64,000 bases of DNA from Marsupella aquatica (Eukaryota; Plantae; Marchantiophyta). The DNA is taken from positions 3,882,738 to 3,946,737 of the forward strand of contig OZ316896.1 of assembly GCA_973895155.1 (NCBI GenBank). Direction: 5' to 3'. Positions within the stretch are counted from its first letter, which is position 1. Each line of letters starts with the position of its first letter. Positions 22,757 through 64,000 of this stretch are shown here, piece by piece. A program made the position numbers and the translations under genes. The notes beneath the pieces are model-generated. The model had not been told where the DNA came from. It worked only from the letters and a program-made list of their open reading frames with translations, and did not search any database.

Positions 22757-22973
22757 GTTGCTCCACTCACATAACTACAGTACTAGCACACTTACTTGCC
22801 TTGGATGTGTGACACATGGCTTCCATCCGTGTGCCATGCTTGATCCGTGTGCTCGAGGTGTGAGCACCATAAAGAAAGAGGAGAGGGGCTCTCTCCCCTC
22901 ACTTCCCATTTTTTATCAACTAAGTTGTGAAGTCTTAAGAATCCATTGGACTTGATAACCTCTTCTATGAATA

Positions 22974-24430: not shown

Positions 24431-24793
24431 GACCCCGATGTTTTTTGAAGGAAATGACCGGGGAAATGCTTAACCTCGCGGGCTCACCATTTCTTGCAAT
24501 TTACGTTGTTTTAACGTCTCTTTAACGTTGTTTTAACATCCCATTCACGTCGCTTCCAAACAACATTTCCTATGAACACCTTGTCCTAAACGACGTTAAG
24601 TTTAGGAACGTCATGCTGTAAGAGGTAACTGACATCGGACGGGGTTTAAGCGGGACGTTAAATGTTAGGGTTTCTACAAAAAATGATGTTAATACTAATA
24701 TTAGGTTGTAATTTGTAGGGTTTTGGGGATGGGTTTTTGTGAGGGGTTTTGTATAGGTTTTTCTCATATGATAGATGGTTTTATTGGTTGCAG

Positions 24794-39145: not shown

Positions 39146-39697
39146 AGCTGAATGGGTTTCCGTCCGATACAGTCGACGAAGGCCACGGTGAACCAATACC
39201 CAGGAACAGTTGAAAGCAGAGCAATCAAAGCTAGCACAGGCAATTCTGTAGACTTCCTGCAGAGCGCTCAGACATGGACGTCGCAGCTGGAAGCCATCCC
39301 ACAGCAGTGAACAGATTTGACTGAAACAAGTTCTGGCTGTAGAAGGAGATGTCCAGCAGAAACCATGTCATACAAGTTCCGACCAACTGTCATCCGTGGC
39401 GTCGAGCGAATTTCCTGCTGAACAATTTGTAGTCCTTGACTTTGGTTGCTGTCACGGGCTCCGTAACCTCAGGACTAGTGTCGAATTGGGTGTGGAGAAC
39501 CCTCCCCATATCCTTGGCAGCTCGCTGCTGGTCCTTCTCCATCAAGGCAGTGTGGCGAGCAGTTTCTGGCATTTTCGATCGCGAGTAGTAGGTCAGGGCA
39601 GCCGGAACAGCTCCAAACATGAACATCAGCCTCCACACCCAGTCAGCTTGCCGAACAGTGGAGGCATTCCCCAGGATATGACCTCCCTTGGCTGACA
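39146..39697 (-). pseudogene. PHT1: Inverted internal PHT1 fragment, antisense to the intact gene
   Basis: Reverse complement matches 29212-29763 ([20 protein letters not shown]...KPIQL), with a TGA stop and small indels. Confidence 0.95.
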
Positions 39698-40451
39698 GAC
39701 CCTCCTTTTCACCAGGTTGTGAAGCTTGTGTCAAATTTGGCGAATCATCTGCAAGATTTATGGGATCTATCTAGTTTGTTCTAAGTAAGCAATGATGTCA
39801 AATCACGAAAGAAAGCTTGATGCATCTATCGATCAGTTCCAAGAGAATGTGCTTAATGTACAAGATCCAAAGAAAAGTAAGGACGAGTGGCCCAATTCTA
39901 TCAGTGCATTTGAAGTATTGTGACTAATTTGGAGGGTTCTTCTCCATTCAAGGGATTTGGATTTAATGAATTTATAATGGAGACAATTTTGGACTGGAGT
40001 CCATCGTCAGAGCAAAAAGCTGCCTTCCAGCTTGCTTATGTAAAACAAGTCACAAGTGCCCAAGAAATCTTGTAAGCCTGATTGTCAACTTGCTCCAAGG
40101 GGGTTATGGTCTAATGATGGTTTTTCCTTTGAATGTCATGGAACAATATTTTAATTCTAGGTCTTGGCGAGAGTTGAAAGTGAACCAGGGACAAATCTGG
40201 AGTAGAGTACATCCATGTCACACTTCACTACTTAGTTAGTACACTATTGTAGCTGTTGACCTTTAGTTCATGGCACTATTACACTAGAGTGGACACTAGC
40301 TTATGGTACCATTTTTGTGGTTGATCTTATTTATTTTATCCTTCTAGGTTTTTGGGTTGACATCATCTCCCCTCTTCATTTGAGGTCAAAATTTGTCCTC
40401 GCTAGACCCTCTTTTGCTTTTACTTTATTGTCCTTGTTTGGCCCTATTTAG

Positions 40452-42105: not shown

Positions 42106-42874
42106 TGTGACCCAGCATCGCACCAGCTAGCCCACGAGCTTTGAAGCTAGAGCTCAATAGGCCGTGTTGGACTGGATCTCAGTTACATTGAAGTGGAATC
42201 CGTCCTTCGGAACTTCTCTTTTCTGAATTCAGTAGAGATTCAAAGTTCTTTGGGCGAGGACACAGAGTGCTACGAAGTTTAAAGTTTGAGCAAATTCTGA
42301 GAGGTCACAAAGATGTCGCTCACGGGGGGAAATCCGGTGCTCAAGGCACTGGATAAGCGAAGACGCAGACGTATCATTTCAAGGCGATTGTGATCGCCGG
42401 TATGGGCTTTTTCACCGACGCTTACGATCTGTTCGTGATTTCCATCCTCACCAAGCTTCTCGGTCGTCTCTACTCTTTCGACCCTTCCACTCCCGAGGTA
42501 ATAGGGACTCTTCCCGTCAACGCAATGCCGCAGTGGTTGGTGTGGCGCTGTGCGGGACTCTTGCCGGTCAGCTCTTCTTCGGGGCGGAAGAAGATGTATG
42601 GAATTACATTGGCGCTCATGGTAATCGCTTCCCTCGGTCAAGGTCTGTCGATGGGGAGCTCCGCCACTGGCGTGCTAGCCACCCTCTGCTTCTTCCGATT
42701 CTGGCTCGGGTTCGGCATAGGCGGAGGTAATCCGTTGTCAGCCACAAAATTGAGTGAGTACTCCAACACGAAGACTCGAGGTGCCTTCGTTGCTTCTGTG
42801 TTCGCCATGCAGGGAGTTGGAATTCTCACAGGAGTTGCGATGTCCATGAGCGCTCTGTAGAGAGTCTACAGAAT
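42106..42874 (+). pseudogene. PHT1: PHT1 pseudogene (part of 5'UTR intron plus 5' CDS, frameshifted, ~490-bp internal deletion)
   Basis: Matches 28384-29140, then jumps to ~29628-29661. [13 protein letters not shown] has become [13 protein letters not shown]. Retained intron sequence indicates DNA-level duplication. Confidence 0.95.
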
Positions 42875-45800
42875 CCATGATGTCAAATCAATGATGTCAA
42901 CAAGAATGTAGCTCGATCCATCTATCGATCTGTTCCAAGAGAATGTGCTCAATGTACAAGATCCAAAGAAAAGTAAGGACGAGTGACCCAGTTCTATCAG
43001 TGCATTTGAAGTATTGTGACTAATTCAGAGGTACTCGTCTTTACTTTTCTTCAGGTCATGTACGAATTGTGCAAGACAGTTGGTCGCCAGCCGTCGCGCG
43101 TGCAAAATGGAACAAAACCAACCTCATTCCGACAAAATGTTCAGACCCTGCAATCACCACACTACCAAGATGAGTATCTTCTGGATCTGGTCTCCAATGG
43201 AGTCCTGGAGAGAGTGTCCTTGGACACAGATCTCACCTTGCTGTTGCTAGTACGTCTATCCGCAAGGCAATGGAGTGGTCACTGATTCTCACCACGTGAA
43301 TGAACTTGAACAGGCAGCTCGTCTTTTCCCATCGACAGCGTGCAGAAGAGCTCCTCAAACTCACACAATCACATGTCACAAATACTTGTGGAGACGTACA
43401 CAACAGGAGACTTGCAGCGACTTGTGGTGGAATTCTTCGAAGGTGCGTCTCTTGAAATACTCGACCGCCCTCCCGGTCCCGGGAATGTCTCTTAATTCCT
43501 GGCAATGTCGCAAAGAACCACGTGCGAAGCAGTCAAGTGGCCGGGTCGGGGCTCAAGATTGAATAAGATTGTGAGACTATTCACATCTAGGCCAGCCCTG
43601 CGAATCATACTTTTCTTTAGATCATTAGAGTACTTTCTTCCCAGCCATGCCATGATCGTCGACCGGATCACAAAACGCACAGAACAAAGATCCCACAGGC
43701 TGGGCCACAACGTCGTTCAGAATTCCCACATCGTATTGTTCCCACAGCTCTTATGGGAAAGCGCCCACAGAAAGGTTCGTCGGGAATAAAATGTTCAGAA
43801 ATGTTTCTCTCGCGATCGCCCGGTTATCTTGGGATATCCCGATGGGCCCACAGTATATACAGTAGCCTATCGCCATCCTCTGATTAAGAAACCATAAGAT
43901 AACCCTTGTCGAAGGCAATGATTGACACAAGCCTACCTCCCAGGATAATTAATATTATGAAATCATTGCCAAGCCAGGAGAACCGATTCGGTCAAAACTA
44001 ACATGAGTGACCCTTTAGGAGGGAATTAACGCATTTGACTGTTCACTAGTTTCTCTCTACTTGGAGAGACCCAACTACCCCTCGTTCCCAATCGCCTCTC
44101 ATCACAACACTCTAACAGTCGAACTCCCCAGCCTTCTCCGTTTCTAAAACTTTTTGGCCTCGATTGAGATCACAACGGATTAGGACATGATCAACCAATG
44201 AACCCACTCGTAACTAACCTACATTGCCTGACAAGTGACGACTAGTCGAGCAGACAAGAAGTTGACAGAACCGACAATTCCAGAATGAATCCTGACTTGA
44301 GGGGAACACTACTTGCGTCTATAGCTCAACGTGGGATTATGTGTGCTCCACAGTCATAGCAGTTTCACAGGGTAACGCTCTGCATCCTAGTTACTTGACA
44401 ATAAATACCGGAGTACAAAGAGCAGCTAATCATCGAGTTATGAGCTGAGAATAGTTCCAATCAGGTATGAACTGAGAATACTTCCAATCCGGATGCTTGT
44501 ACAATTAGACATCTCGCATGTGGTGTCTTCACCCACTCCCCAGAGTACCTACAGATCGGGGTGTCTTGTTGCTGCTAAGTACAAAAGCTATGGCTGGAAC
44601 GGGCCAAAAGTCCTCCCAACGCTGAAAACGTGAAGTGGACCAGGTCGTGGCTCGACAAACCGACCTGCTCCCTGTCCTGCAGTGCCGACGTGCTCTCTCG
44701 TGACCTCCCGATTCCTTGTCCTTCACCCTGGCCAGAGCTTTCCAGAATTAAGAACTCTAATGAGATGTGTGTACCTAACAGTACTGCCTTTCTATCTCAC
44801 AATGCACATTAAATGAGTGACGTCTGAGATTCCATCGTAGCCATTAACTTTGAAATGAATGGTGAAGATCAAGCCAACAAACTGCATAACTGTAGGGCAT
44901 TAATACCTGAGTGAAAATGGAGATCATTCCAGGCACTAATGCACTTTATAGTTGCTCTGGCCGTGCCAGAAGTTGGTTCTGAAACCTTGAGTTGTTCTCC
45001 ACTTTACTCCGTCTTTAATGTTGAGACGAGTACTACACGCTGTGATTGCTTTGTGATTTTTAATGGACTGGTGACCGAGCTGGTGACGAAAAACCTTTCC
45101 AATGTGAAAAGGAGATCTTCATCTGCAATAAGATTTCTTGTTTTCTTTTTCAACCCAAAAAGTAGCATGGTCTAGCTATTGTGGATCTTCGACGGTGTGA
45201 ATCAATTCTAATCGGTGACGTGATTGTGAGCAGTCAAGACAATCAACTTTTTGCTGAAATGGGAAGCAAACCGATAAACGAACAACATTTTATCAACACT
45301 TTTCTATTCTTTGGGGCAAAATGAACGATCTGCTAGAGAGATCTGATCGATACTGTCAGGGAGATGAACATTGAGATGGCAGGCACATTTGATGAGACCG
45401 GAGCGGGGCTGGTCCTCTGCCCACTTCTCCGCAGAGGTGGGCCTCATCAAGAATGATATCGCTCAAATTCGCAAAAGAGCCTCAAAAGGCTACAACACGC
45501 GCACGACGAGGCCAGTGCAAAGGCCATGAAAGCTTAGGGCTGTCTTGCATGTGCAAGAGTCCTCAAAAAAGCGGCCCTAACCAGCCCAGGATAATACCTG
45601 CTATTTTGTTTTATTACGTTTTAAAGTTTCGGGACCTCAAGGGCCGGAAATTTTCCGGCCCTTGCCCTTGTATTTCCACAAACGACGCCATCAGGACTGC
45701 CGCCCTCTCGCTGCCTCAACTCATGACACGAGTTCATTTTAGGGACGATTGCAAAGGACCACCGACATGCAAGATGGCCCTTAGATTGAAACAGCGAATG

Positions 45801-48340
45801 AAAAACGAGATTGATTCAGACGTCAGTAAGGTGGCTCAAGGTATCCATTCCAGTAAAATTTGGGGCCCTTCACATTAATCGAAGCGAGTAAAGAGCTGAT
45901 ATCCGAACTCCAGATATTGCGGTAAGAATTCTCCCAAAGGTATCGGCAAGTTGTGGAAAGACGTGTTTCTATTATTGTGACGGGATAGAAGGCAGATGAG
46001 CCTATTATCAGTCAGTCAATTCATAGAAGCTGGAAACAGTGACCAAATCTTTCTGAATTAAAGCAATTCCTGAGCAAGGGCCAGGACAGAATGAGTCTGG
46101 ATACAATGTCTGAAAATTCAGGAGCGTCATGATGCTGTCAAGGCCATGATTGAGAAAAAAGCTCTGACTTGGACTTTCTGTCATAGCATGTTTGGACCAT
46201 AGCATCTTAGGTGCTTGATAAGAAGAAGGAAAGCAGGTAAACAAAGCACTGAAGCACTTGCAATGAACAAAAAATATCTCCCAAAGAACAAAATGAGCCA
46301 ATCCTGGGACTGATCCAATGGCAGGGACTCATCCAAAATGGCAAGAGACCCGGTAGGGCTTCTCTACCTCTCGTTTTTGGCTCAGGTAACAGTCACACAT
46401 GTTTTCCGTGAAGCCAAGTGGTACACTTGCAAATACATGGTTTACCACTTGTGAGCAAAGTCCCACACCCATAAGTTTGGGCTGGGCATTTTTTGGATTT
46501 TTTTCACAGCACTTCAGGTTTGAAATGCCCTAATGAAGAGAAAGACCCCAGGAAGACCAAAAAGCCCAAGACCCCATATAAGAGTCCCTCACAACAGCAA
46601 ATTACATCTTACTTATAAAGCGCAAACAAAAGCTAGAGATGGGGTCTAGATTTCTAGAGTGAATCTTCTAGATTGTAACTCCACATGAAGAGAAAACTTA
46701 GTGAATACCAAAAACCCAGATGGGGGCAAAGGTGATTGTGGAAAAACATAGATCATTTTGTAGCTTATTTAAAGTTTTTTTTAATCTCTATTAATATTCA
46801 AATAATAGGCATTCAGACTCATACTCCCAAAGCTTTCATTGCAGTAAATGGGTCACAAAGAGGAACCTATCTAGAGACCCTAAACTAATATTCTTGGCCC
46901 TACAAAAGAATAGTGAATGTACTCTGTACTAGACAGTGCTAAAGACACAAGAAGGTGGTGAGAACATAAACTAGGAGATAAGGCCTCTGCTACACAAAAA
47001 AAACCTGTAGGAAATAGTCAAATGTAGAGCCCAGTCCTCAAGAACTCCAAAGCAAGCAGGTAGGATAGGTCAACATTTTCCTTTTCCTAAAAACTAATTT
47101 GACTACCAGGTTTCCCTTAATTTGTATGTGAGATGGTGGTTTAACCAAACTATACTAATCAGAGATGGCCAGTCATTGTCCAGGACAAATGGACTCTCAA
47201 AAGTGGTGGTTGGTTGGACATGCCAAGTTTTTTGTTTTCTAGTTTTGCACAAGATGCCCCCATGGCATGTAAGACTGTCTGGATAGAATCAGAGAGGGTG
47301 CAGTCTATTGATGTAAATAGAAACTACTCTAGAAAACTAGCAAACAGTGTTACTTGCTCAGATTCCATCCGAGTTGCAAAAGTCCATCCAGGCATTTGGA
47401 CAAGGCTAGACGGATGCCACACGGGCTTCTTTTTCAACATTTCACCATTTAGAGAAACTGCATTTGAGAGGAACAGCATACATTGACTTTAGGTAGCTTG
47501 TGAAGGGAGGGCAAAACCTAGAGCACAGTTGGTCAGCATGCAAGAAAAAAGAGAAAAGAAATAATCCCTAGCCAAGAGGCCATTGCCAGTAGATACACTG
47601 TGTTTTACCATAGTAGATCTTGGTTTTAGTGTCTTTGGCTTTACTTGCCTTTGGCTTTTGCCCTGGTCTTTCTGGCTTTTTGGCCCTTTCTTTTTTCTCC
47701 CTTGATTGGGTGTTCGGCCTGAGAGATAATGTCTCCCGGTTGGGGGCCTTCTGTTTTTTTGGCAATTTCAAATATATTCTTGGTTAAGGATTGAAGATCG
47801 AAACTTTCATACAGGGGGGGACTTTGAGGGCTTCTCACATGTTGGACTGAATGAAGGAGGGCCCCTTTATCAATGAGTTTCAAATGCTAGTAAGGCAATC
47901 TCTCAAAGCAACTTACTACAACTAACAGAAGTATTCAGAACCGGAATTTAACAGTCCCACTGTGCTTAACAATCTGTTCCACTAGTTTATGCCATGGCCA
48001 CTGAGCACCCTTGTGATTGACTTGGTTCCTAGGAGTGTATTTGCATTCACTGAGTTGCTCAATCTTTACCTTGAAACATCCAGTCAAAGTCCATTAAATC
48101 AGGCAGCATACAACAGGGTGGCCCATGAAAAGGGGGACAAAATTGAAAGGAGACTAGAGGTCAAAGTGACAGAAGCAGAAGGGACCGCGCCAAGATACAG
48201 GCTAGGCCTCAACAGAGAGACAGCTAAACACAATGCTAAACTAAGTGCGTGCAGAGGGGGAGGGGGGGGGGGGCGGACAGGCAGCACACTCCTTAAGACC
48301 TGCCAGTGAAAGCAGCCTCGACAAGGGGCCACCCAGGGGG

Positions 48341-48540
48341 TCCGTGATGAAAAATAACCTTGTCAATCTATCTACAAGTCAAACACTACCAAGCAACCTA
48401 TAATTTGTCCGTGATGAAAAATGACCTTTTCAATCTATCTACAAGTCAAACACTACCAAGCAACCTATAATTTGTCCGTGATGAAAAATGACCTTTTCAA
48501 TCTATCTACAAGTCAAACACTACCAAGCAACCTATAATTC
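48341..48540 (+). repeat. ~67-bp tandem repeat x3
   Basis: TCCGTGATGAAAAATrACCTTkTCAATCTATCTACAAGTCAAACACTACCAAGCAACCTATAATTTG. Confidence 0.92.
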
Positions 48541-48927: not shown

Positions 48928-49110
48928 ACACAGTAGTCGTTCAACTGTACTTCAAACAAGTTATGAGTAAATAACTTTGATTGGGGTTACACAGTGCTAG
49001 TTCAACTGCACTTCAAACAAGTTAAAACTAAGTAACTTTGATTGGGGATACATAGTGCTAGTTCAACTGTACTTCAAACAAGTTAAAACTAAGTAACTTT
49101 GATTGGGGTT
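48928..49110 (+). repeat. ~61-bp tandem repeat x3
   Basis: GTTCAACTGyACTTCAAACAAGTTA...TAACTTTGATTGGGG repeated three times. Confidence 0.9.
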
Positions 49111-50559: not shown

Positions 50560-52188
50560 ACATATAATTACCTTTTTTTGCATCCCTATCAAGTATTACA
50601 AGAGCCTGTATTGCATACCACATTACACCTGACCAAGAAGATTTGGAGCAAAATCCATGGCCACACCCAAAGTGCAACCAGAGCACAACAGTATAGTTAG
50701 GGCTTGAACTTGAGACGTGTTCAGGTACTGTCCCAGTAATTGCACATCAAAAACTAACACCCAGATACATATTTAGAATAACACTCACTGATTCAAATAT
50801 AATTATTGAGTTTATCATGGTGTAGAGTGACAATCGTGGTACACAACATATTGTTACATTTTGATGTGAAATTACTTGGAGGCAGGGAAGAGGAAACGTT
50901 TCTCACAAATCACTCATGGCCACTTGACCTGACCACCAGGTCCCACTGAAGTGATTAGTGTTATGCATGCAACTACTGTAGCACCATCATAAGCAGGTGC
51001 CAAGTAGACACCAAAAAGTCAACATTGTTTTTCCCAAAGTCGAACCCCATAAGGCCGGGTCTAGTGTTGCATTAGCCCCACCACTTTAAGCAACTTCCCT
51101 TTTTATAATGCAAACATGTAATCTATGGTTTTATATTCAATTGACAATGTCAAAGCTTCATTTTAGTCTCGTAAACTTTTGTACCTATCAACTCATGGAA
51201 CCCAAATATATAGCTTAAAACTGAACCAAACTTGTTTTGATGTGGAACAACTTTATCAAAACCAAACAATATGGGTTACCATTCTAGTAATAAAACGGTC
51301 TACAACCAGCTATGGCCAGCCTTTCAGTATATTTATTAGAACGTTTTAAAATCATCTTTGAGTACAGGCCTACAGGGCTCCAACCGAGGCTGCAACCAAA
51401 CCAATCAGAATTTTATGATTTTATTAAAGTTAAGAAAAACCGTTTAACAAATATCCACGAGTTTTATGAAAAGGTTTTAAACTTGAGTGAAAAAAAGAGG
51501 AGAATCAAACTTTTTAGTGACTCAACACAGAAAAGTGGGAAGCAATTTTTAAAATTTTTTATCAGCCTATCTTATAGGTCATGTAAAACTGTAGACCCTT
51601 GGCTACTATACAAGAGTTGTGTACCCAAGAGCCCCACTCCAATGCTCCAAAGAGTATCAACAACCAACAATGAAGGCAGGCTGGAGTTATGGCCATTACA
51701 GTTATGGCCAGTACAAAATACGGGCACAAGCATTGGGAAGCCTGGACCGGAGTTGTGGGCAAGATAAGGAAAACCAAGTGAGGTAGGTATGGGTGGCAAG
51801 TCCCCAGAGGCACTTACAACGGAAGTACATAAGCGATTCAAAGCTAAGTTTTCTTACACCAAGTCACAAATGGAACAGTGTTAGGAGGTTGGTTGATTTC
51901 CATCTGATGCTAAGTGGTAGCAATTGCAAGGCTCTGTGTCTCACCTCTTAGGGAACCTGCCGCTCAGGTTGGATTGAAGTGCCACCAGCCACACTTGGAC
52001 CGATAGTTGGTTGTTGGGTGTAATACACGGGTTGAAACCAGTGACAATGGTAATTTTCTTATTCTTAACCTGTAGAGCTTCCTTATTACAGGCTCATCAT
52101 GGAACAAACTTTGTTATCTTGTCGTGTGGCAAACTAAAAGGGAGAAAAAAATTTAAAATTATTCCTAAAGGTGAGAATAGGAACTTAA

Positions 52189-52548
52189 AGGCAGGATAGA
52201 CACAAACGTTTGTAGGGACAACCCGGATGGACATAGCCTGTTGACACTATAACACCAATCCCTAATGACACCCAAAATGGATTACAGGTGTCTTATGAAC
52301 AGAAGCTAACCGAGATTTAGAAATTAAGTTAAGTACGTTTTACCTCCTCCGTTGCTCCTGTCTGGACAGACTACAGGAAGAAACAACCAAAAACCTCCTG
52401 CTCCCGTTCAGACAGCTTTTTACAGGTCACCATTAAAGCACAAGTGAAAAGTGTGTTATACAAGCCCAATCTTAGGTTTCTTCTGTGTCCATCCAGGTTG
52501 TGTTTGTCCATCGGGGCTTTTTCTCAAACGTTTGTGTCTATCCCGGAT
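52189..52548. mobile_element. MITE, Tourist/PIF-Harbinger-like
   Basis: Imperfect TIRs AGGCAGGATAGACACAAACGTTTG ... CAAACGTTTGTGTCTATCCCGGAT, each flanked by TTAA; non-coding. Confidence 0.75.
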
Positions 52549-53420
52549 TTAAGATCTGAGAATATAGTTTTTAATTAGAACTCTGATCAAGTGGCAAAGT
52601 GAATTCAGTGCAAAAGATAATATCATGGCTCATCAATGAGCCTTGTACACTCAGTGCTTGCAGCCCTCTTCATTTACTGCCCGCAAGAAGGGAGCACCCG
52701 TGAAATTTTCTAAGTGTCAAAATCAATGAGCTTGCTCCAAAGTGGGATTTCCGTCAAATAAAGTTTATAGCTTACCAATTTCAACTACCCCTACTTGGCC
52801 CCGATCTGCTACTCTACCAAGAGGTATTGTATTATGTGAGCAAACAGGAATTTTGATACCAAGGAGACTCTGAGTGTTGTTAACCTCGTTGTTAGCAAGT
52901 CACTAGTGGTTATTAATTTCTTTTGACTTTGGTTGCCTCTTTTAATATTAGTAGTAACTGTTTTTTTGGACTCCAGATGGCGAGTCTGCTAGCCAAAAGA
53001 GGAGTCCCAACTAAAGTGGATGTTACCAACCAGGTCGTTGTTAGCGAGGCAGTTGGATATAGAAAAATAAGGGTCATACGAGTTTAAAAATTGCTCATGC
53101 GAGGATATTTTTTACTGTTTCCTTGCGAGCTACAATGACCCTTCTACCAATAACCTAGTGTTTCGTTCACATGTAGTCACATTTGCACCTTCTATTAATG
53201 TCAACATTGGACAGTGGCCACGGGCAGCAGCCTCCCTAGCCCGATGGGACAATGCATTAATATTAATGTGCATCAAGAGTGTCAATAGTACTACATGATC
53301 AAATTTTGGGCAAGTTGTCATTGGAAGTAATGATTAATGCTCTGCCTGCAGAATAATAATTAACGTCAACAATTGATCATCATATGAGGGGGGCTTTGCA
53401 AGATTATCAAGGCCATTTAG

Positions 53421-53506
53421 TGTCTCTCAAGGTATATGCTTGATGGGACCCCTGCCAAAACAAAGTCTCTCAAGGTATATGCTTGATGGGACCCTGCCAA
53501 AACAAA
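53421..53506 (+). repeat. ~43-bp tandem duplication
   Basis: GTCTCTCAAGGTATATGCTTGATGGGACCC(C)TGCCAAAACAAA x2. Confidence 0.9.
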
Positions 53507-55693
53507 TTTACGTGATGGGCCCTCACAATTTTTTTGTTACAAACTAGGCCCCTTCAGACACCCTTTTGTCAGATGTTCTTATAATAATTCTTATAAGGAG
53601 TTTTAGCTTGGTATTATCACCAATAAGAGTTACCATAAATTTTTGAGTCAAACAGTCTGTGCGGAATGACAAACTACACCATGGGGGAACCGCAGAGTAA
53701 TGGCGGACGTCACGTATATTGCAAGTTCCTAAGTACGTGAAGCTTGTGGGGTTAACTTAGTGTATATTTTGGGGTACCATGTGCGATCCTAGCCTAATAT
53801 AAACACACCTGTTTTATAACATGAATATTCTAAATCTATTCTCTATTTTCAATATTAATGACCTATTTTACTTTAGAAAAGATGTATATTAGAGAATGTT
53901 TTACAAATATGGGTTTATAATACATTTTTTTGCTTCCTACGCTTTTTACAAATTTTGTTAATTTCTATGAAATATACATATTTTGGATCGCACGTGATTC
54001 CTAAGATTTTTGATAGTCAACCTCCCAAGACGTGAAGACAATATGATTCATGTCTTCAGGTTTGAATTCTACCTTACCATCCATCTTTAGGTTGCTTCAT
54101 GATGCAACCTATGCACTGGGTTTGCATATTAAATGTTGACATGTTCTTTTGTCTAAAATAGTATGGAATGAATACTCTATTTTTGGTCGTTGGCCCCTAC
54201 TGTAACATTCAGAATTGTCCAAGTGTGGAAGGAACCAAGGATCTTTTACTTTTGGCGTCTTGCCCTTGTTGCACAACTTTCAAAAATTGTCAAAGTGTGA
54301 AACAAAGACAACATGGAGTCAATTGTACCGGAAATTTTTGCTAGCCTACAAGAACTAGACTAAATGTTGTACAAACCCGCTATCATGTAATGACGAATTC
54401 TCAAAAACTCTATATTCATGTGAAGACATAATACATTGATTATGTCTTCAAGCATAGACATACATGCGATACACTATGACATGGCGCGCTGTGGAGTTGG
54501 GTGGGAAATGTACTGTTGACCATGCAATTAGGCACCATATTATAATAAGAATCATGTGTACGGAACCTACATATGGGGCCTATTTTATAACAGAGGTTTT
54601 GTAGGGCCCATCACATCTCTACATCCAAAGCATAGTTGACTGCAAGTTCCATACACTAAAAGTTAAAATCACTTAGCCAAAATATGTCAAGTTTGGTCAT
54701 AATAAATGCAATACCCTGAATAGAAGCAGCCACTTGCTCCATTCCTTAGACAAAAAGCATGTATACATCAGCAAGAAAACTGACCCACAAGGGGCCCATT
54801 GACACATGATCGACTAGGTTTGGTAATGGATTTAATTGCCTGATTGTTACTTCATGTAAACTGAGGTCTGGCCTGTTCCAAGCCACATTTGAATGGCTAG
54901 GATTGCATCTCACACATAGAAAAAAATCAACTTACTGCAGCCCCAGTTCTTGTAAAGCCCCCCTGAATAAAGACCTTATTATTACTACTTAGCAACAGAG
55001 GTTCCCAATTATCACATTGGAGTGCACAGTGATCCTTGATCACCTTTGATTACACAGTTATTGTGATCTCTTTTACTTAGAGGGTTTTGAATGCTTCTAT
55101 ATGTTATGTCCATTACAAACTTGGTAGGGAGACACTTCTAAAAATGATTTAAGGGGGTTACTAGAAACTTGGATAAAAATTAAAAATAAAAACGTAGAAT
55201 GGGGGGAACCACATCTATTTCACATGGATTAAACTACAAAGAAAATATATGCATAGGATGAATCAGAAAGTAAACAAGGACAAATGAATTGACAAATGCT
55301 CTGAGTGAGCAGGTTAGATGCCTTGTCTATAAGGGGACATCTAATTTTCTTTTTCTCGGGGAATTGTGATTGTAGAGCTTCTTTATTAAAGCCCCGAGCA
55401 CAATAATGGCGACAACACAAGGACACTTTCCACAAAAGAACTTTGGAAATTCCAAAAATCACTAAATATTATTATTTTAATAAAAAGGGGGCGACATGAC
55501 GCGTGGCTGCGCGTGAAACCCTGAAAATGACTGCAACGTCACATTTTAACCAATCCAACTTGACGGGACAAAGAGACATGTTCATGCGAATAATAATAAT
55601 AATAATAATAGAGAAATAAATCTTTGAGATCCTTTATATATGATAACCAGTATATAAGGAGTTTACAAATGGTTTCTAGAACGACAATACAAA

Positions 55694-56422
55694 TTAATCT
55701 GATCTCATGCCGACTATTATTTTGGAAGTGTCCAAAATTGGGCGTCTGTTAAATTGCTCTACTAGATATCTATCTCCATGCCTCTGAATCACAGGGTCTT
55801 CCCATAGAGTATGATTATAATCATAATCTCTAAAAATAGATTTAACTGACCAATCTGGATAATCTCTTCCATTGGCAATGACAAGCGGCTCACAAGAGTT
55901 TGCTAGCTTGCTAAGATACGGAATCAGCAAGTTAATCAGGAAACTGTCGTCGACCGACCCAAAATATTTGGGCGGAAATAATGATCCAACAACAGGATCT
56001 AAACAAGCATGAAATGCATCGGATTCGATAAGCATTATATTTTGCTGCAGATACGCCTTCGTATAAATTCCAACCTTCTCAAAACACTTCAAAAATATCC
56101 GCTTATTTGATGTCACCCCATCGCATAAGTAACAATGAGACTGATCCCAAATATACTTAAATGAGGCCATTTCCATCGCAGTAAAAATAGATGCTAAAAT
56201 CTGATCTAAAAGGTTCTTCCCAAGAGAGGACCAGATCCCTACATCAAAATTCTCAAAACAGAATCTCAAGAATTCGTGAAGATGAGGCCTTGGAAAAATG
56301 TATATATTCCCAATCCAAATTCCAGTTGAGACCGCCATCAGTCGGGAATGCGGTGCAGTGTAACAGAGTAGATGCTCCACGTCTAAAACTATGAGCCCAT
56401 TTTCTCTACTGCAATGAATCTC
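55694..56422 (-). CDS. FCP1/NIF HAD-phosphatase-like domain 3 (terminal exon; degenerate active site)
   Basis: LIVLDVEHLL...PRPHLHEFLRFCFENFDVGIWSS...YIWDQSHC...FLK...NIMLIESD. Acceptor TCTACAG|56422. Confidence 0.8.
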   Translation of the reverse strand, partial: EIHCSRENGLIVLDVEHLLCYTAPHSRLMAVSTGIWIGNIYIFPRPHLHEFLRFCFENFDVGIWSSLGKNLLDQILASIFTAMEMASFKYIWDQSHCYLCDGVTSNKRIFLKCFEKVGIYTKAYLQQNIMLIESDAFHACLDPVVGSLFPPKYFGSVDDSFLINLLIPYLSKLANSCEPLVIANGRDYPDWSVKSIFRDYDYNHTLWEDPVIQRHGDRYLVEQFNRRPILDTSKIIVGMRSD

Positions 56423-56514
56423 CTGTAGACAAACACAAGAAGATGCATGAGCCCGTATGGATGTAGTCACGCGAATGGTCGCGTCACATATTACAGAGAA
56501 AACATCCTCTACAC

Positions 56515-57216
56515 TCTGGCCATTGATAAGTGACGTCTGTTGAAGTGCTTGATAAGAACTTGATCCGCATGTCTCTGCACGTACAGATGCTCCCATATAT
56601 CCTCGTTCAGATCCCAATCTCGATGTAGATTTCTAATCGACCAGATGGGATAATCAAACTTGTTAGCGAACGCAAGACAAAGCCCTGAATTTGATAGCTT
56701 TCGTAAATATGGAATGAGGTCATCCCTCAAAAAGACATCATCCAACGATCCTTGAAACGACTTAGCGAACAATAATCCGCATACAACTGTCTGGCATGTA
56801 TGGGAAGGACAGACATCAATCTGGATTATATTCTCTGGTCGATAATCTTGAAACATATCACATAGTCTCTCGATAGATTTGAAGACAACAGTCTTATAAT
56901 TTTTCTTCACATAACCAAGATTCCAGCAATGATCCCGCGTGAACACATATATCAACTGCGACAGGTCGGTGCTCGACAACACTTCTGAAAGTATCTGATA
57001 AACCAGTTTATCGTCGAGAACAGACCAGACCATCACATCAAAATGATCATAACAGAATTTTATAAGATCATGAAGATGCGGCCTCGGAATGACACATAGA
57101 GATCTGATACGAATTCCGGGTGCCGACTTGAGCTGAGGAGTATATTTTGAAATAGAGCACAGGAAGTTTTCCAGTCCTAAAACTAGAAGTTGACGCGACT
57201 TGCTCCACTTAGACAC
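56515..57216 (-). CDS. FCP1/NIF HAD-phosphatase-like domain 2 (exon; nucleophile Asp lost)
   Basis: LLVLGLENFL...PRPHLHDLIKFCYDHFDVMVWS...VFKSIERL...PENIIQID. Acceptor TTTACAG|57216. Confidence 0.8.
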
Positions 57217-57341
57217 CTGTAAATGAACAATTTGATTATCATATTATGCAATTGCAAACAACCACGCGACCGGGCGCGTCACTCCCAAAAGTTCAATTTC
57301 AATCAATTTATAAATAATAATTGATAATAAACAATAAACGT

Positions 57342-58247
57342 TTACTTATTGGACTTATCCCGGGCTTCTATAGCACGGTCTTTTTTGGCAGATAAGTATT
57401 TCATAAATTCGTCAAACTTTTCTAAATGGTCTTTATTCCCCTGATTACAAATGATCACGTTTCTCCTCCAAAGATTCGTCTTATCAATATAATCTTTCTC
57501 AAGATTTTCTTGAGAGAACGTTGGAATCCCATATCCACTAAGGAGCTCGCGGAATGTCAACTTGTCAATTGACATGTCGCATAGATATGGATATAGTTTC
57601 TTTCTAAAAAATAGGTCATCATCGAGCCCAGAATATGCATCGGGATACAGCGATGAATAGAAGTCATTAAGGCTCATCTTATATGCAGCATCATCGATAA
57701 GAATGACATTCTCGATGTTGTAATCTTTAATATCGGCGGCAATGTCCGAGAGACATTTGACAAATAAAGGGATGTCATTATTATTCTTCCCAATAAGTTG
57801 AGTTGATTCTTGTCCCCATATAAATTTAATACGTTTCAAAACTTCGGGTCGAAGTATCAGCCTTACACAAGATAGAATATTCCGTTTGAACATGCACGAC
57901 CAGATCGCAATGTCGTATAGATCTGCCACCTTCTCAAGAAATTCCATTAAATCAGGCCTTGGATAGATAACCTTGTGCATCTGTCTCACACCCCTTGACC
58001 GAATGGGCATCCCAGGGCTAATCTTCTCTGACCAGATAAGTACCCGATTCAGATCGAAAATTACAAGTCTCTTCTGAACCGGTGACTTCTTTGCCGATGG
58101 ATTAGGCACCATCCGTACCTGTGATTTTTGTGCCGCAGGGTTTGGAGAACGTACTAGAATGGTCTGTTTGTTTCCCGCCTCTGGACGATCACCGGACTTC
58201 CGGACTGGTGCCTTCGATACTCGATCAGGGGGTTTCGGGATAGGCTT
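57342..58247 (-). CDS. FCP1/NIF HAD-phosphatase-like domain 1 (exon)
   Basis: KRLVIFDLNRVL...PRPDLMEFLEKV..LYDIAIWSC...FIWGQE...ENVILIDDAAYK, the DLNx-type FCP1-homology subfamily pattern. Acceptor TTTTACAG|58247 is in frame with the 57342-58112 ORF. Confidence 0.85.
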   Translation of the reverse strand, partial: KPIPKPPDRVSKAPVRKSGDRPEAGNKQTILVRSPNPAAQKSQVRMVPNPSAKKSPVQKRLVIFDLNRVLIWSEKISPGMPIRSRGVRQMHKVIYPRPDLMEFLEKVADLYDIAIWSCMFKRNILSCVRLILRPEVLKRIKFIWGQESTQLIGKNNNDIPLFVKCLSDIAADIKDYNIENVILIDDAAYKMSLNDFYSSLYPDAYSGLDDDLFFRKKLYPYLCDMSIDKLTFRELLSGYGIPTFSQENLEKDYIDKTNLWRRNVIICNQGNKDHLEKFDEFMKYLSAKKDRAIEARDKSNK

Positions 58248-58333
58248 CTGTAAAACATTAAGAAATGAAAATAAGTTTATAACGCGAACGGTCGCGTGAC
58301 TACAAAGAGAGATACTGAAATGAAGTGTATTAC

Positions 58334-59122
58334 CTATACAAGACGGTTGTTTAGTGCTGGAATTCCGCCGGAAATGTCAATCATAGCAGCACGGATCCCG
58401 GTAACTAGGTTACTTGCGGACGTCGGCTTGCGGAAGTCCATGTCAAATAACGACAAGACTATCTCCCTACGGAATTTCTCAATTTGATCCGCGGCAAAAT
58501 TAATTCCGTTTCCTTGACACAAGCACTTGGCGTATCTCAAGATAAACACACCACAACTGTGGCCGTCACTCTGGTGAGGAATATCATTCCGATATATCCA
58601 TTCCCAACCTGAGAGATCCAAGTTGACACCAGTTCTCCAGCCAATTTCGTCGGCGTAGTACTTCCCAACAATATCTAGCACCCCAGGATTTTGTCGATTA
58701 TGAACTAGAGAATCTAGGTACTCCAGCCGTTTCTCCTTTGGATACAAGACTACCAATGACCAATGTTCTTTCACAGCATTGTGTACTGGAAAGACCAGTT
58801 TCTCGTATTCACTGATTTTTAGCGGAAACTCCTTTGTCCAAGCTGCTCTCTCCTCGTCGAAAATGGTAGGATCCATGGAGAGAAGCTCAAAATGGTGTGT
58901 TTGGAAGAATTTGACAAGGTCTGACTTTCCAACTCTATCGAGAATCAGTTCGAGAAAACTCAAATAAGCGTTAATTATATCATCGGTGAGCAACTCGCGC
59001 GGTCTCAGACACATCATATGTTTTCTCTTGATCGAGTGTTGTAAGAACTTGGTCAATAGCTCTTCCATATCCTTAGAAGGATCAAGGCATTGATCTATTC
59101 GACTAGCCAAATTTTCAAAAAA
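58334..59122 (-). CDS. Ulp1/SENP-like SUMO protease domain (peptidase C48), exon
   Basis: CLRPRELLTDDIINAYL, FPVHNAVKEHWSLVV, YLDSL, PHQSDGHSCGVFIL. The His-Asp-Cys triad and oxyanion Gln are intact. Confidence 0.92.
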   Translation of the reverse strand, partial: FFENLASRIDQCLDPSKDMEELLTKFLQHSIKRKHMMCLRPRELLTDDIINAYLSFLELILDRVGKSDLVKFFQTHHFELLSMDPTIFDEERAAWTKEFPLKISEYEKLVFPVHNAVKEHWSLVVLYPKEKRLEYLDSLVHNRQNPGVLDIVGKYYADEIGWRTGVNLDLSGWEWIYRNDIPHQSDGHSCGVFILRYAKCLCQGNGINFAADQIEKFRREIVLSLFDMDFRKPTSASNLVTGIRAAMIDISGGIPALNNRLV

Positions 59123-59257
59123 CTGCAAAAAAACAGAAATTTCAGAACGCCTTCAAATAACGTACTGAGGTTGTAGCCTAAGGGTTGTAGCCTCAGAAAA
59201 CAGAAACAATAACAGATCAATAATAAAATAATGACGTCTATAATAGAAACTTTAAGC

Positions 59258-61119
59258 TTATAGCTTGCGAATGACCTTTGGATTGGGTGGATCCGGCCTT
59301 TTCGCAGCTGATCTCTTGGGTGCCTCAATCGCAACAACATCCTTCAGCCCTCCTCGAGACCGCAGTGATCGCTCCACCGGACCAGTTTGCGAAGGTTGGA
59401 GCGATGAGGCGGGAAGACCTTCAAATGGTTGTGGCATTTGATTCAAATATTCCACAATCTGGGAATCCGATTCCAAAATATCCGGTGCCACAATTTCTGT
59501 GCGAGTCACCTCTACAATATATTGGGGTCGAGACCACGAACCCGATCGCGTCAAGTCAGCTGTTAGTCTCTTAACAACTTGAGCCGAGTCTGGTGCCAAA
59601 AACATTCCCAGGTCTTGCACTCGATTCTTGGAAAAGCGCACATTATTGATGATTGTCTCCATTCTGGATGCAGTGGCAGTCTTCTCCTCGGTAATCAAAA
59701 GACCCTTCCAATATTGCAAAGCAAGGAGTGCCTGGACTCGGAGCTGCTCCGGTGAATATTTATTCCAATCATCCAACGAGACCGTACTTAAGGGTGGATC
59801 GTTAAATTCAAACTCCGGGCGAAGAAAATAGTCTAATATTTTCTTCTTAACTGCAACTGAGGGTGAAGAAGGCTTCTTAAAATTCAGCCTTATTTTCGGT
59901 AGACGTTGTGCCTCAGGAATAAGCGAAAGATCCTTGGCCCTCTCGGCCTCCTTCCTCGCTGCCTCCAGTCTTGCGGCTTCTTCTCTCTCCAGTCTTGCGG
60001 AATCCACCTTTTCTGCCTCCAACTTCTCCGCCTCCACCCTCTCCGGTCTTGCGGTCTTGTCCGCCATCCTCTCGGCCAGAAGCCTCTCAGCCGCCTCACT
60101 CTCCGCCTTGGCCCTATTTTTGTCTGTCACTAAAAGGACTCTCGCAGCCTCCGCTTTCTCAGCCTAGGCTTTCTCCGCCTGGGCTTTCTCAGCCTGGGCT
60201 TTCTCCGCCTGGGCTTTCTCAGCCTGGGCTTTCTTGGCATCCGCTTTCTCAGCCTGGGCTTTCTCGGCCTCCGCTTTCTCAGCCTGGGCTTTCTCGGCCT
60301 CCGCTTTCTCAGCCTGGGCTTTATCAGCCTGGGCTTTCTCAGCCTGGGCTTTCTCAGCCTGGGCTTTCTCAGCCTGGGCTTTCTCAGCCTGGGCTTTCTC
60401 GGCCTCCGCTTTCTCAGCCTGGGCTTTATCAGCCTGGGCTTTCTCAGCCTGGGCTTTATCAGCCTGGGCTTTCTCAGCCTGGGCTTTCTCGGCATCCGCT
60501 TTCTCCGCCTGGGCTTTCTCCTTCTTCTTCGCGGCAGTTGCTTTTCTAGCTGTTGCCTTTTTCTTCTTAACCTCCTTCTTTTGAAGCTGCTCTTGCCGGG
60601 CCGCCTCTTGTCGGGCCGCCTCCTCCTGCCGGGCCGCCTCCTTCTTTTGAAGCTCCTCTTGCCGGGCCGCCTCCTGCCGGGCCGCTTCCTTCTTTTGAAG
60701 CTCCTCTTGCCGGGCCTCCTCCAGCCTGGCCTCCTCCTGCCGGGCCGCCTCGTGCCGGGCCTCCTCTTGCCAGGCCTCCTCCTGCCGGGCCGCCTCCTCT
60801 CTGGCCTCCTCCTTCCGGGCCGCCTCCTCTTGGTCCACCTCATGTCGAGGCTCCTGTGTGGCCTCTTCATCAGAGTCCTCAGCGTCCTCGGAACCCTCCA
60901 TCTCCTCGTCCTCTTCATCAGCGTCCTCAGCGTCCTTCATCTCCTCTCCGTCACTCTCTTCATCTCCTCTATTGTCGGAATCTCCGACGTCGTTCTGCGT
61001 ATCTGTCATCCACTCTGGATCTTGGTCATTGACATCCCCATCCATGTCACCTTCCCCCTCACCATCCGCATCACCATTGCTCCCTGCATCCTCAACATTG
61101 AAACCGCAGTCGACTTGAT
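59258..61119 (-). CDS. Exon with acidic tract, EEAARQ and AEKAQ helical repeats and an unknown domain; one premature TAG at 60164-60166
   Basis: Acceptor TATTCAG|61119 is phase-compatible with donor at 61238. ORFs 60164-61045 and 59258-60130 share a frame and are separated only by GCC-TAG-GCT where the repeat has GCC-CAG-GCT. Confidence 0.75.
60150..60830 (-). repeat. Coding minisatellites: 15-bp AEKAQ array (~60150-60520) and 15/18-bp EEAARQ array (~60590-60830)
   Basis: Plus strand (GCTTTCTCAGCCTGG)n and (GCCGGGCCGCCTCCT)n-like units. Confidence 0.95.
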
Positions 61120-61237
61120 CTGAATAAAATCAGATCATTTGATAAGAATGACTCACGCGTGAAAAGAAATGTTATGAATATCCACGCACATGTTCGCGTG
61201 ACGCAATAAGAAGTAAGAGGTTTCAAAAGTAACTTAC

Positions 61238-61559
61238 CTTGGATTGGCCCACTAGGGTACTCTGTTGGTCGAATATACAATCGATCGAAATCTTCAGAGA
61301 GTGCATACTCTTGCAATAATTGATTACAAATATTATCAGGGATATGTTGTTCATGGAGGACATCCAAAACATCAGCCCTGAGAGCAGTTACGGATGGACG
61401 GTACTTCATTAATTTATCTATATATTTTTCTATACTAGCCCGTACTGGGTCAATCAATGACAGCGTTGTATCAATTGTCGTCGTGGTGTGTTGCAAGAAA
61501 CAAGACAACTCCCTATGCGTTGCCACAGGGCAGTAATATTTTACATTGGATCCAGCATC
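61238..61559 (-). CDS. Internal exon of the giant gene
   Basis: Acceptor TTTTACAG|61559, donor CAAG|GTAAGT at 61238. Translates DAGSNVKYYCPVATHRELSCF...GPIQ. Confidence 0.75.
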
Positions 61560-61659
61560 CTGTAAAAAAAGCCGAAATTAGTTCACAATATTAATTGAGA
61601 ATATAATAATCTAAATAATCTTAAAATCGAAACCCCAAAATATAAATCTCAAAACTTAC

Positions 61660-62962
61660 CATTAAGCACTGGATCAAGTTCGTTCCCTCACCGAAGCATA
61701 TAGCCCATTCCCCACATTAGACGAATTGACTAACAATACTTTCAAAGAATGGAAGTATCTTTTCTGGGGAAGGTGTCATGAACTCGTCGCTCTCTTCAAA
61801 ATTGGATATTTTTTCAATCTGATATTTGGAGACCAATTGGAACTCTAGGGCTTGTGGATCGCTCATTGTACTGAAGGCCAAGCTGTGAAAAGCGTAGGTT
61901 ACAATAAGCTTCTTCTCCTTCGGCCTCTTCTAAATATAATGGCTATCGACAGCAACGTAGTGTGTGTACTTCCCTAATTCCCGTTTGATTAAGTAAGACT
62001 CAACGGGAGAGGCTACAATAATAACCACATGGTGTGGTTTTGCCCCTATCTCGCTAGTAGCACGAAATAACCCCTCAGAATGAGCAATTTGGCGGACGCA
62101 AATCTCCCATTGATGAGGGATCAAAATAAATCAAGCTCGCAAGGTTCTTGTCTTCACGTATGATACAGTCTGCAAACCCAGCATTTTGTATATCCTGCAG
62201 GGATCGCAATTTCAGCCTCTCACCGACCGGCCGCACTAGTTGGTTTCCTTGACTATCAACTGATTTCTGTATTCCTTCCACCAACCTGTAGAATATAGGG
62301 TCGATCTCCTTCAACAAATTATCATTACTAATATTTACATTTAAGCACTTCTTCAGATAACCACTCAACGCATCTCTCAACTGCTTCAGCACCATCTTGT
62401 CGAGCTTAAAGCGATCAATCATTCCTTTGACCCGCAATTTCCGCGCTGAATCTGTCAGACTTTTCAGCTCCGTCCGGGTGGATGTTTCCCCATTGAGTTT
62501 ACTCAATAATAAAATCTCAAACTCAACTTTCATCTTCTTCTTTATACAGAATTGCTCCAAACTCATGCTGGTCGTTGACAACACTCGAGCCTCAGAGGAC
62601 TTCCTCGCCTTCCCAGATTTCACTTTGATGCTTTGGTTTTTGAGTATAGACAGTCTTCCGCTCAACATATATTCCGCTGCCTTTCGAAGAACCGAGTCTG
62701 AGCACCCTTGACAAGAACGGAACGTCTTCTTTAGAAGATGATAAGCACATGGATTATCCGCAATTTTGACGGTGTCCCTCTGTAAAATTCTGTTGTAAAT
62801 TACAAGCTCTCCTGTCCTTGATAGTTCATAGACCTCCATCCACTTCTTGAATGTTTCGTCCTCCATTGTAAAGAGAAACGGAGCCAATTCTCCAAATTTC
62901 ATCATTTCGTTCTTCCCCATTTGAGCCCATGGGCAGACAAAACTCGTAGCTCTCATAAATAC
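61660..62962 (-). pseudogene. Exon with a helical region plus a degenerate beta-class N4/N6 DNA-methyltransferase-like domain (1 frameshift, 2 stops)
   Basis: Acceptor TTTTTCAG|62962, donor ATG|GTAAGT at 61660. LASLIYFDP(frameshift)HQW...EKILPFFESIVSQFV*CGEWAICFGEGTNLIQCLM follows the motif IV ... X-I order of permuted amino-MTases. Confidence 0.5.
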
Positions 62963-63061
62963 CTGAAAAACAATGGAAACATGACAATTCTAAGCTTGAC
63001 GCGACCATTCGCGTGACAAAAGTTTATACGATAATGTGATCGAAGAGGGTTATTTATATAC

Positions 63062-64000
63062 CTTCCAATTTGGATGACGATAATGTGATCCAGGCCACCC
63101 AAATGAGTTCCAGATATTACGACACTGTCGTACAATGGTGAGAAACTGTCCTTCTTCCATTGATGTTTGATGACAGTGGTTCAAAGCTTTTGATAATCCC
63201 ATCAAATGAACATTATTGTCGTTGTTGAGCGTTGCCCAAAACATTATAGCTTCTACAGTACCGCAAGCGTCTCGTACAACTTGGCTGACTTTGTCGTCCT
63301 CTCTCAGCAATTTGTACGCCATTATTGTGTGCTGGCCTTCGAGTATCCAGAAATGACTGGTCATAATGTCCTCCTCCTTTGGCGATGAATCGTAGGGCAT
63401 CCCATTGTAGTCGGGATCTCTGTCGGCCTCCGACTGAACCCACTTCACAGGGACTAAAAAGCAGCATTGCTTCTCGAACTTTATAGCCGAATGAGAGAGG
63501 AGTGAATTCTTTAGCCTATCTGTGTAATCCTGATTCCACTCTCGGCACTTGATGTGGTCCGGTGCAAGATGACAACGTGATGTCTCAACAAAAAATGACT
63601 TGCTGTTAAATATATTCACAGCACTATATTCTTTGAGGAAAGAATCAAACAGAGCCCCGACATTCGCTGAGGTAATTACTTTCGGAAGATTCTCCGCCGA
63701 GTATATTTCAACCTTGCTCACTGGCGGGGCCTTTCCCAAGCAAAATCCCTGGTTGAAAGGAACTCTCTGGAACTCAAGTACGTCAATAATGTATTGACAA
63801 ATCAAATCTCCCGTTGATGCCTCTGGATCGGAAGGATATCCCACACTAGTAACCTTTTCCAAGGCGTGCCTTGCACCTAGAAGATCATCGATTATGGGTT
63901 GATTGAAGGTTACATATTGCGTTCGATCCAAACAAATGCTTATTTTGTCTTCCTGCTGGTCGTCGCTGACTAGCAGAACCAATCCCTCTGTACACTCTTT
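63062..64000 (-). CDS. Exon with ParB/Srx (DGQHR-like) domain; frame is open beyond the window end
   Basis: CREWNQDYTDRLKNSL...CCFLVPV...HFWILEGQHTIMAYKLL fits the ParB-N pattern R....L..S...hhV...hhDG.H.h.Ah..L. Donor TGGAAG|GTATAT at 63062 is in phase with the next exon. Confidence 0.6.

Follow-up and report, generated by a model that had tools for sequence, protein, structure and literature searches.

Does a single locus of a land plant encode a protein with which a mobile element recognizes its own copies? The question is raised by the minus strand of positions 64,000-55,694 in a 64,000-nucleotide (nt) stretch of Marsupella aquatica DNA (Marchantiophyta; NCBI GenBank assembly GCA_973895155.1, contig OZ316896.1, positions 3,882,738 to 3,946,737; hereafter the window). 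An earlier note, made from the letters of the window, had read this strand as one multidomain gene with ParB-like, DNA methyltransferase-like, Ulp1 SUMO protease and FCP1-like phosphatase parts. In the present analysis the eight exons likely form one intron-split gene, and the locus is probably accessory cargo of a DNA transposon. With about even confidence we propose that its protein docks on 20-bp palindromes of the element itself and keeps the element from silencing, where we infer the binding, the activity and the single transcript alike.

A palindrome family within a repeat

The 64-kb window was scanned for TGACGCG-N6-CGCGTGA with at most three mismatches, which gave 13 strand-matches at seven sites against 0.83 strand-matches expected. 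All seven sites fell within 55,497-63,016, inside the element. Five are in introns, namely intron 1 (62,997-63,016), intron 3 (61,182-61,201, a degenerate copy with extra half-sites), intron 5 (58,280-58,299), intron 6 (57,262-57,281) and intron 7 (56,467-56,486), one is in the 3' non-coding part of the repeat at 55,438-55,693 (55,497-55,516), and a weak one with three mismatches is in exon 4 (59,534-59,553); introns 2 and 4 have none. Six of the seven sites are non-coding, as is 12% of the element (binomial p 2e-5). The intron-7 site equals the intron-1 site at 20 of 20 bases on the opposite strand, and the half-site TCACGCG occurs eight times in the 8.6-kb element and a single time in the remaining 55.4 kb. 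Once the motif was masked, the introns showed weak mutual similarity (three of 21 pairs had a shuffle p <=0.02), and they are therefore neither recent duplicates nor carriers of a shared miniature inverted-repeat transposable element. The gaps had been seen before, but the palindrome family within them had been missed.

Repeat status was measured with Logan contigs from four of the seven listed runs over 52,000-60,000. Flank contigs that are 100% identical to the window (depth 28-32 in X1 and 29-55 in X3) stop at 55,467, and X3 contigs have loose ends at 55,438. Summed depth, which is not a copy number, was 1,314-2,887 in X1 and 3,805-14,550 in X3 in all 17 bins of 55,471-60,000; these two runs may derive from the organism of the window itself. 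The paralogous contigs comprise single-depth copies about 10-17% diverged (83-90% identical) and collapsed contigs at depth 126-358; two further organisms contain related sequence at low depth, in 27 and 18 of 30 bins. The picture for 55.5-60 kb is of a diverged repeat whose copies number tens to hundreds and are in part near-identical, with differing flanks among the diverged copies. A sharp edge separates this repeat from the single-copy flank at 55,437/55,438, and its other end runs off the window. These depths, paralogues and flank junction bear out the mobile-element context that had been claimed. Beyond 55,438, three X3 contigs carry on with another sequence that they have in common and in which a TTTAGGG-like word occurs on the minus strand; other copies may therefore reach further, and the window copy may be truncated at this position. 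A CACTA pentamer at 55,460 was considered as a terminus and rejected because the shared repeat starts 22 nt earlier. Separate from the element, a very high-copy short repeat occupies the flank at 53,600-54,135 (summed depth 20,000-42,000 in X1 and X3).

The locus could instead belong to a host gene family that segmental duplication has enlarged, in which the palindrome is an RNA hairpin or a transcription-factor site, and a hairpin of 6-8 bp can indeed form in four of the five palindrome-bearing introns. We regard this as very improbable, given the sharp junction to the single-copy flank and the very high summed depth. The folding of the introns is unremarkable (z from 1.07 to -1.96), and one site is 3' of the coding region. 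In addition, the three best sites retain one arm mismatch, which is easier to reconcile with recognition by a protein than with an RNA stem; as the two arms are not identical at this base, a perfect-palindrome pattern finds no site. The 20-bp palindrome is, in our reading, likely the docking site of the self-protection protein predicted for the element.

A likely intron-split gene

From the list of open reading frames (ORFs) and inspection of splice signals, the minus strand from 64,000 to 55,694 resolves into eight exons and seven GT-AG introns. As the earlier note had described, the minus-strand ORFs are parted by gaps with splice signals: all seven begin with GT and end with (C)AG after a pyrimidine tract, span 86-153 nt and have a mean GC content of 34%. 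The introns are 62,963-63,061 (99 nt, phase 0), 61,560-61,659 (100 nt, phase 0), 61,120-61,237 (118 nt, phase 1), 59,123-59,275 (153 nt), 58,248-58,333 (86 nt), 57,217-57,345 (129 nt) and 56,423-56,514 (92 nt). Donor and acceptor are phase-compatible in six of the seven pairs, one more than first counted. The out-of-phase pair is that of intron 6, already flagged as needing repair, where the donor at 57,345 has phase 2 and the acceptor at 57,217 has phase 0; an unusual GAG acceptor at 57,203 would bring the donor into phase. Without the introns (777 nt), 2,509 codons remain within the window, in line with the protein of well over 2,000 amino acids that had been expected. As homologues start about 95-115 amino acids further upstream, past base 64,000, the full protein would have about 2,600 amino acids.

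A search with exons 1-2 against 1.84 billion protein representatives returned 38 proteins. One, P0032, was removed as a low-complexity bacterial-type repeat protein, and 37 of the 38 are exon-sized relatives, fragments of 67-489 amino acids at 27-59% identity. No longer relative of exon 1 or exon 2 emerged from word-index protein searches, and a near-length protein search found three relatives. Eleven of 13 exon-1 homologues end 2-44 residues past a W-x-V motif found by regular expression, which places the donor of junction 1, and the other two were placed by alignment. Four proteins (P0012, P0013, P0015 and P0026) read through junction 1 without an intron and in the register predicted for the splice; they may derive from either intron-loss lineages or transcript-derived contigs. 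In P0007, P0011 and P0023, exon 2 is a single ORF with a stop shortly past the intron-2 donor. At the level of sequence, homologues thus confirm junction 1 and, for junction 2, the donor.

The donor of intron 4 at 59,275 (AAG/GTCATT), previously called ambiguous, is weak, yet its junction is in phase and has a strong acceptor. This position is where the locus would divide if it held two accessory genes, a ParB-helical-methyltransferase-like-repeat gene ending with TAA at 59,260 and a separate Ulp1-NIF3 gene. The intron-4 gap is the longest, at 153 nt, and is free of the palindrome, and red-algal Plavaka elements have such domains in separate genes (10.1101/2025.02.11.637652). The phase and the acceptor argue for splicing, however, and 153 nt would leave little room for a terminator and a promoter, and we therefore consider two genes rather unlikely. 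At 59,169-59,192 in the same intron, a 10-mer direct repeat sits inside a small hairpin. A GGCTACAACC repeat in intron 4 showed no clear enrichment.

The copy in the window is decayed. It has a frameshift near 62,078 (TGA at 62,077), in-frame stops at 61,932 (TAG), 61,719 (TAA) and 60,166 (TAG), the phase clash at intron 6, and a deletion of 10-12 residues relative to the homologues. The frameshift and the three stops, which had escaped notice while the clash had not, mean that this copy cannot encode the full protein.

Domain content of the predicted protein

Exon 1 (63,062-64,000, with the start beyond the window) would encode a beta-rich N-terminal region followed by a probable ParB/DUF3723-like domain at about 63,062-63,620. 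The Atlas feature match gave DUF3723 at 0.94 and ParB_N at 0.91 with 169 features shared, at a recognition of 2077, under the benchmark of 2300. The window copy reads HFWILEGQHT, and the motif FWI[LIV][GED]GQH[TS] is conserved in 12 records, all of which read GQHT or GQHS. In three homologues DUF6551 was matched at the GQH motif at sub-threshold values (E 0.05-0.17). The consensus of ParB box II is GxxRxxA, with Arg as its fourth residue. Thr or Ser appears to replace this Arg here, on an assumed register. In phages, DUF6551 is described as partnering the ParB fold, and nucleoside triphosphate binding is described as requiring the Arg of box II (PMC12704722).

Other searches returned little. 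No ParB Pfam match was present in the 10 element ORFs scanned, and the hidden Markov model (HMM) of PF12520 did not match exon 1 or its homologues. Comparison of exon 1 by hhalign with YbdM-like (70 sequences) and SopB (12 sequences) profiles scored no better than shuffles, with a positive control that itself reached only E 0.03. PDB sequence searches with exon 1 and with alignments A1 and A5 gave no useful match, and a short match of alignment A4 to a cytochrome (E 5e-4) was judged spurious. A first fold model (3 sequences, pLDDT 36, the predicted local distance difference test score) was unusable, and its structure matches were disregarded. The ParB-like call thus retains the Atlas match, the GQH motif and the sub-threshold DUF6551 hits but has no Pfam match, and a ParB-type domain in exon 1 is a probable though weak assignment.

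Exon 2 was approached through an AlphaFold model of the homologue P0011 (17 sequences, pLDDT 69). Its 5' part (62,230-62,962) corresponds to a conserved all-helical region, where pLDDT is mostly 70-90. From its position between the ParB-like and methyltransferase (MTase)-like domains, this region is a candidate DNA-reading part. The fold searches barely covered it and list no fold match, and Atlas gave no usable match for the 5' part of exon 2. The 3' part (61,660-62,230), which contains lesions in the window copy, is supported by the model as a beta-class amino-MTase fold. Aligned with VIA-align, residues 245-452 of the model matched M.MboIIA with Z 9.0, barely above the noise range of 7-8 for this tool (root-mean-square deviation 5.0, 163 aligned), TTHA0409 with 8.8 and M.RsrI with 8.5; the top 16 rows were all beta-class or MT-A70 amino-MTases, and the matches include PvuII and the rotifer N4CMT. 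The best Foldseek match in the PDB was CcrM (E 3e-3, probability 1.0), and phage DNA MTases matched at E 1.5e-3, so that none of the structure-search E-values for the MTase fold reached 0.001. With hhalign against 63 YhdJ-like MTases, the corresponding strand of the family was aligned onto DPPY at a score of 19-23, compared with a maximum of 15.5 in 30 shuffles. The P0011 model also has the circularly permuted Rossmann fold of such enzymes, in which motif IV comes before motif I.

The catalytic motifs of such enzymes are missing. The (D/N/S)PP(Y/F/W) motif was found in none of six sequences, which read DCSV, DSTL, YASI, DGTI, DSTL and DPSS at this place, and the S-adenosylmethionine-binding FxGxG was found in none of four, which read FSEG or FGEG. 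No MTase Pfam match was obtained in the 10 element ORFs scanned. Of the original DNA-MTase-like claim, the fold is supported. As no homologue seen has a DPPY-type or FxGxG motif, the domain reads as a pseudo-MTase, and an active methylase is doubtful. Inactive MTase domains have been reported in DIRS1 elements (PMC4738411). An MTase that is active with non-canonical motifs, writing N4-methylcytosine (4mC) or N6-methyladenine at or near the CGCG palindromes as a counterpart of Marchantia DN4MT1 or rotifer N4CMT, would agree with PvuII and N4CMT among the fold matches and with the retention of the domain among homologues that are 28-45% identical. We find it quite unlikely in view of the missing motifs, whereas TSPPY is retained by the 4mC enzymes of Marchantia.

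Phage and pandoravirus N4/N6 MTases were also among the fold matches, as might be expected of a relic of an endogenized large DNA virus whose genes had gained introns. Such an origin is highly improbable: no viral hallmark gene was present among the ORFs scanned, the spliceosomal introns are conserved across distant homologues, and IMG/VR searched with exon 1, alignment A6 and the Ulp1 exon gave no confirmed relative. JGI metagenomes likewise contained no confirmed relatives.

Exon 3 (61,238-61,559, 107 codons) had no family match in Pfam. Exon 4 (59,276-61,119) contains an acidic stretch and 15-nt coding repeats at 60,145-60,520 (about 25 units) and 60,590-60,828 (about 15 units), the stop at 60,166 lying within the first of these; the rest of the exon is a region with no assigned domain.

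The most secure domain is that of exon 5 (58,334-59,122). Peptidase_C48 (PF02902) was matched at E 9.8e-19, with 68.5 bits against a cut-off of 20.7, and SENP2 at E 3.6e-18 with HW, YLDS and PHQSDGHSCG aligned. The Ulp1 catalytic set of His, Asp, Gln (oxyanion) and Cys is intact. The assignment as an Ulp1/SENP-like protease with intact catalytic residues, made in the earlier note as a SUMO protease, is therefore solid by sequence.

Three NIF (PF03031) domains follow, in exon 6 (57,346-58,247; NIF1 at about 57,570-58,067), exon 7 (56,515-57,216; NIF2) and exon 8 (55,694-56,422, which also contains the stop codon; NIF3). Their E-values are 3.1e-11, 2.9e-11 and 3.1e-14, all three score 43.7-53.4 bits against a cut-off of 21.8, the domains are 21-25% identical to NIF1, and UBLCP1 was matched by NIF1 at E 0.002. 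NIF/FCP1 phosphatases share a motif I, DxDx(T/V), and an acidic pair in motif IV. NIF1 has DLNRV as motif I and IDD as motif IV, NIF2 has GLENF and IDV, and NIF3 has DVEHL and IES. The locus is thus like FCP1, SCP and UBLCP1 in having full NIF domains above the Pfam cut-off, and unlike them in that none of the three domains in the window copy has the full DxDx(T/V). NIF2 and NIF3 are pseudo-phosphatases in this copy because the motif I nucleophile Asp is absent from the former and the motif IV Asp pair from the latter. NIF1 is without the second Asp of motif I and, judged by these residues, is at most the sole NIF domain that could act. The three domains had been correctly recognized, but naming them phosphatases was an overstatement, and the dephosphorylation by three enzymes that had been built on them is not supported.

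A possible self-recognition protein

We propose that a dimer of the ParB-like and helical N-terminal half would read the two arms of TGACGCG-N6-CGCGTGA, and that the MTase-fold domain, having no catalytic motifs, may be a DNA-contacting or scaffolding module in place of an enzyme. The long charged repeat linker would tether an active Ulp1 protease, which could strip SUMO from chromatin or silencing proteins on copies of the element. The NIF domains might bind phosphorylated partners such as the C-terminal domain (CTD) of RNA polymerase II (Pol II) with no dephosphorylation. The outcome would be family-specific anti-silencing in trans, comparable to that of VANC/KIU for VANDAL elements. More tentatively, and as a possibility to which we give less than even weight, a phage-type ParB-helix-turn-helix-methyltransferase may have been recast as a parS-like self-recognition clamp, with its sites placed in its own introns, its methylase disabled, and a SUMO protease and a triple pseudo-phosphatase added.

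A DNA-binding accessory protein need not act against silencing. En/Spm TnpA is an example of a binding protein with a role in transposition, and the protein could bind the palindromes for synapsis, replication or targeting. The same repeat and palindrome evidence would apply, ParB folds are described as DNA clamps and organizers (PMC12704722), and DUF3723 is described as conserved Starship cargo with a proposed part in the mobilization machinery (10.1101/2021.12.13.472469). This role is rather unlikely, as the sites are in introns throughout the gene and the 55,438 edge has a single site closer than 260 nt, and as the presence of Ulp1 and NIF domains suggests targets in chromatin or transcription.

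Several points weigh against a self-protecting transposon protein. Junctions 3-7 are predicted from splice signals and phase, and the copy state covers 55.5-60 kb only. No transposase, terminal inverted repeat or target-site duplication was found in the 64-kb window, in which a single edge is visible. The palindrome pattern was derived from the same sites at which it was counted, so its enrichment is post hoc. The observed/expected CpG ratio is 0.85 in the element, 0.41 in the flank and 0.85 in the host PHT1 gene, and since the element equals PHT1 this ratio gives no sign of methylation protection.

Relation to described systems

In red algae, the Plavaka (EnSpm/CACTA) accessory gene PAG2 combines a PF01555 N6-MTase with a SET domain, and PAG3 combines a ParB-like domain with a 2-oxoglutarate (2OG) oxygenase; such PAG genes also accompany Zisupton and Mutator, and inverted repeats adjoin the ParB gene of Plavaka, for which self-binding has been proposed (10.1101/2025.02.11.637652). 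The locus shares with these genes a beta-class MTase fold, nearby inverted repeats with a proposed self-binding, mostly degenerate copies and, probably, a ParB-like domain and the status of an accessory gene of a eukaryotic DNA transposon. The locus differs in that the ParB-like and MTase-like domains are in one polypeptide (across the confirmed junction 1) and not in separate genes, that the MTase is without the catalytic motifs, and that Ulp1 and three NIF domains take the place of SET and 2OG oxygenase as effectors. Palindromes occur here singly and in introns, whereas those of Plavaka are arrayed in tandem, and a land plant rather than a red alga is the host.

VANC/Kaonashi (KIU) proteins of VANDAL elements, Mutator-like elements without terminal inverted repeats, are alike in being transposon-encoded accessory proteins with Ulp1 and family-specific non-coding motifs, and KIU Ulp1-VANC proteins recognize such motifs (PMC13317346, PMC10398659). 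No VANC-associated Pfam domain was matched at the locus, however, and the locus has ParB-like, MTase-like and NIF domains in addition. Its motif is a spaced 20-bp palindrome, whereas VANC motifs are short and in tandem repeats. Anti-silencing has been shown for VANC and is proposed by analogy for the present gene. Likened by the domains described, the gene is on our best reading a land-plant fusion variant of Plavaka PAG2/PAG3 that would work like VANC/Kaonashi.

Fusions of a ParB-CTPase fold with an N6_N4 methyltransferase are described as common in phages (PMC12704722), and phage and prophage fusions share the order of ParB-like, helical and beta-class MTase parts. The gene in the window differs from them in being eukaryotic and intron-containing, with eroded catalytic motifs and a long C-terminal extension of eukaryotic effectors. 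No sequence-level match was found to PHROGs (nothing at E<0.001, as in NCBIfam and PADLOC), phage records (best E 1) or GTDB genomes (no confirmed relatives). Fungal Starship cargo with DUF3723 (PF12520), the best Atlas look-alike of exon 1, is also conserved cargo of a eukaryotic mobile element (10.1101/2021.12.13.472469), but the PF12520 HMM did not match, no tyrosine-recombinase captain was seen, and the host is a plant. Cargo of the TET/JBP type is described as moving between fungal transposon lineages (PMC12730594).

No published description was found of a land-plant protein that unites pseudo-MTase, Ulp1 and three NIF domains in a single polypeptide, in a search that left subscription papers, Repbase and preprint supplements largely uncovered. 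The view that the architecture is undescribed thus applies to the full fusion, but Plavaka elements are known to have ParB-like and PF01555 accessory genes accompanied by inverted repeats. VANDAL/VANC is described as the sole transposon system for which binding and modification of its own sequence are known (10.1101/2025.02.11.637652), and the role of Ulp1 in transposable elements is stated as unknown (PMC13317346). Within one gene, the element brings together a candidate reader, an intact SUMO protease and, as the 20-bp palindrome, a candidate site, so both the self-recognition idea for Plavaka and the Ulp1 question become directly testable and are extended to land plants. The analysis also provides a gene model for a family whose entries in protein databases are all unnamed fragments of exons. 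If the proposal is true, plants would have a second anti-silencing machine with sequence specificity, one that evolved independently and acts via deSUMOylation and capture of the Pol II CTD.

Neighbouring features

The rest of the window contains an intact PHT1 phosphate transporter gene at 28,590-30,296 on the plus strand (E 3e-173 to the solved plant PHT1;11) and two broken partial copies at 39,273-39,770 (minus strand) and 42,106-43,031 (plus strand). The PHT1 copies belong to an inverted duplication that has been rearranged (about 34.1-36.3 kb versus 38.6-41.8 kb). An uninterrupted ORF of 1,747 codons at 5,942-11,185 (plus strand) is rich in Glu, Lys and Gln, is strongly depleted of CpG (observed/expected ratio 0.31) and gave no Pfam match at E<=1. 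Another plus-strand ORF, at 24,743-25,228, has Arg/Asp-rich repeats of 21-24 nt and a CPCxxC motif with no Pfam match; it presumably resembles a CACTA transposase-associated region. Tandem arrays with units of 14/28, 67 and 61 nt are located at 22,499-22,758, 48,340-48,539 and 48,928-49,110, respectively.

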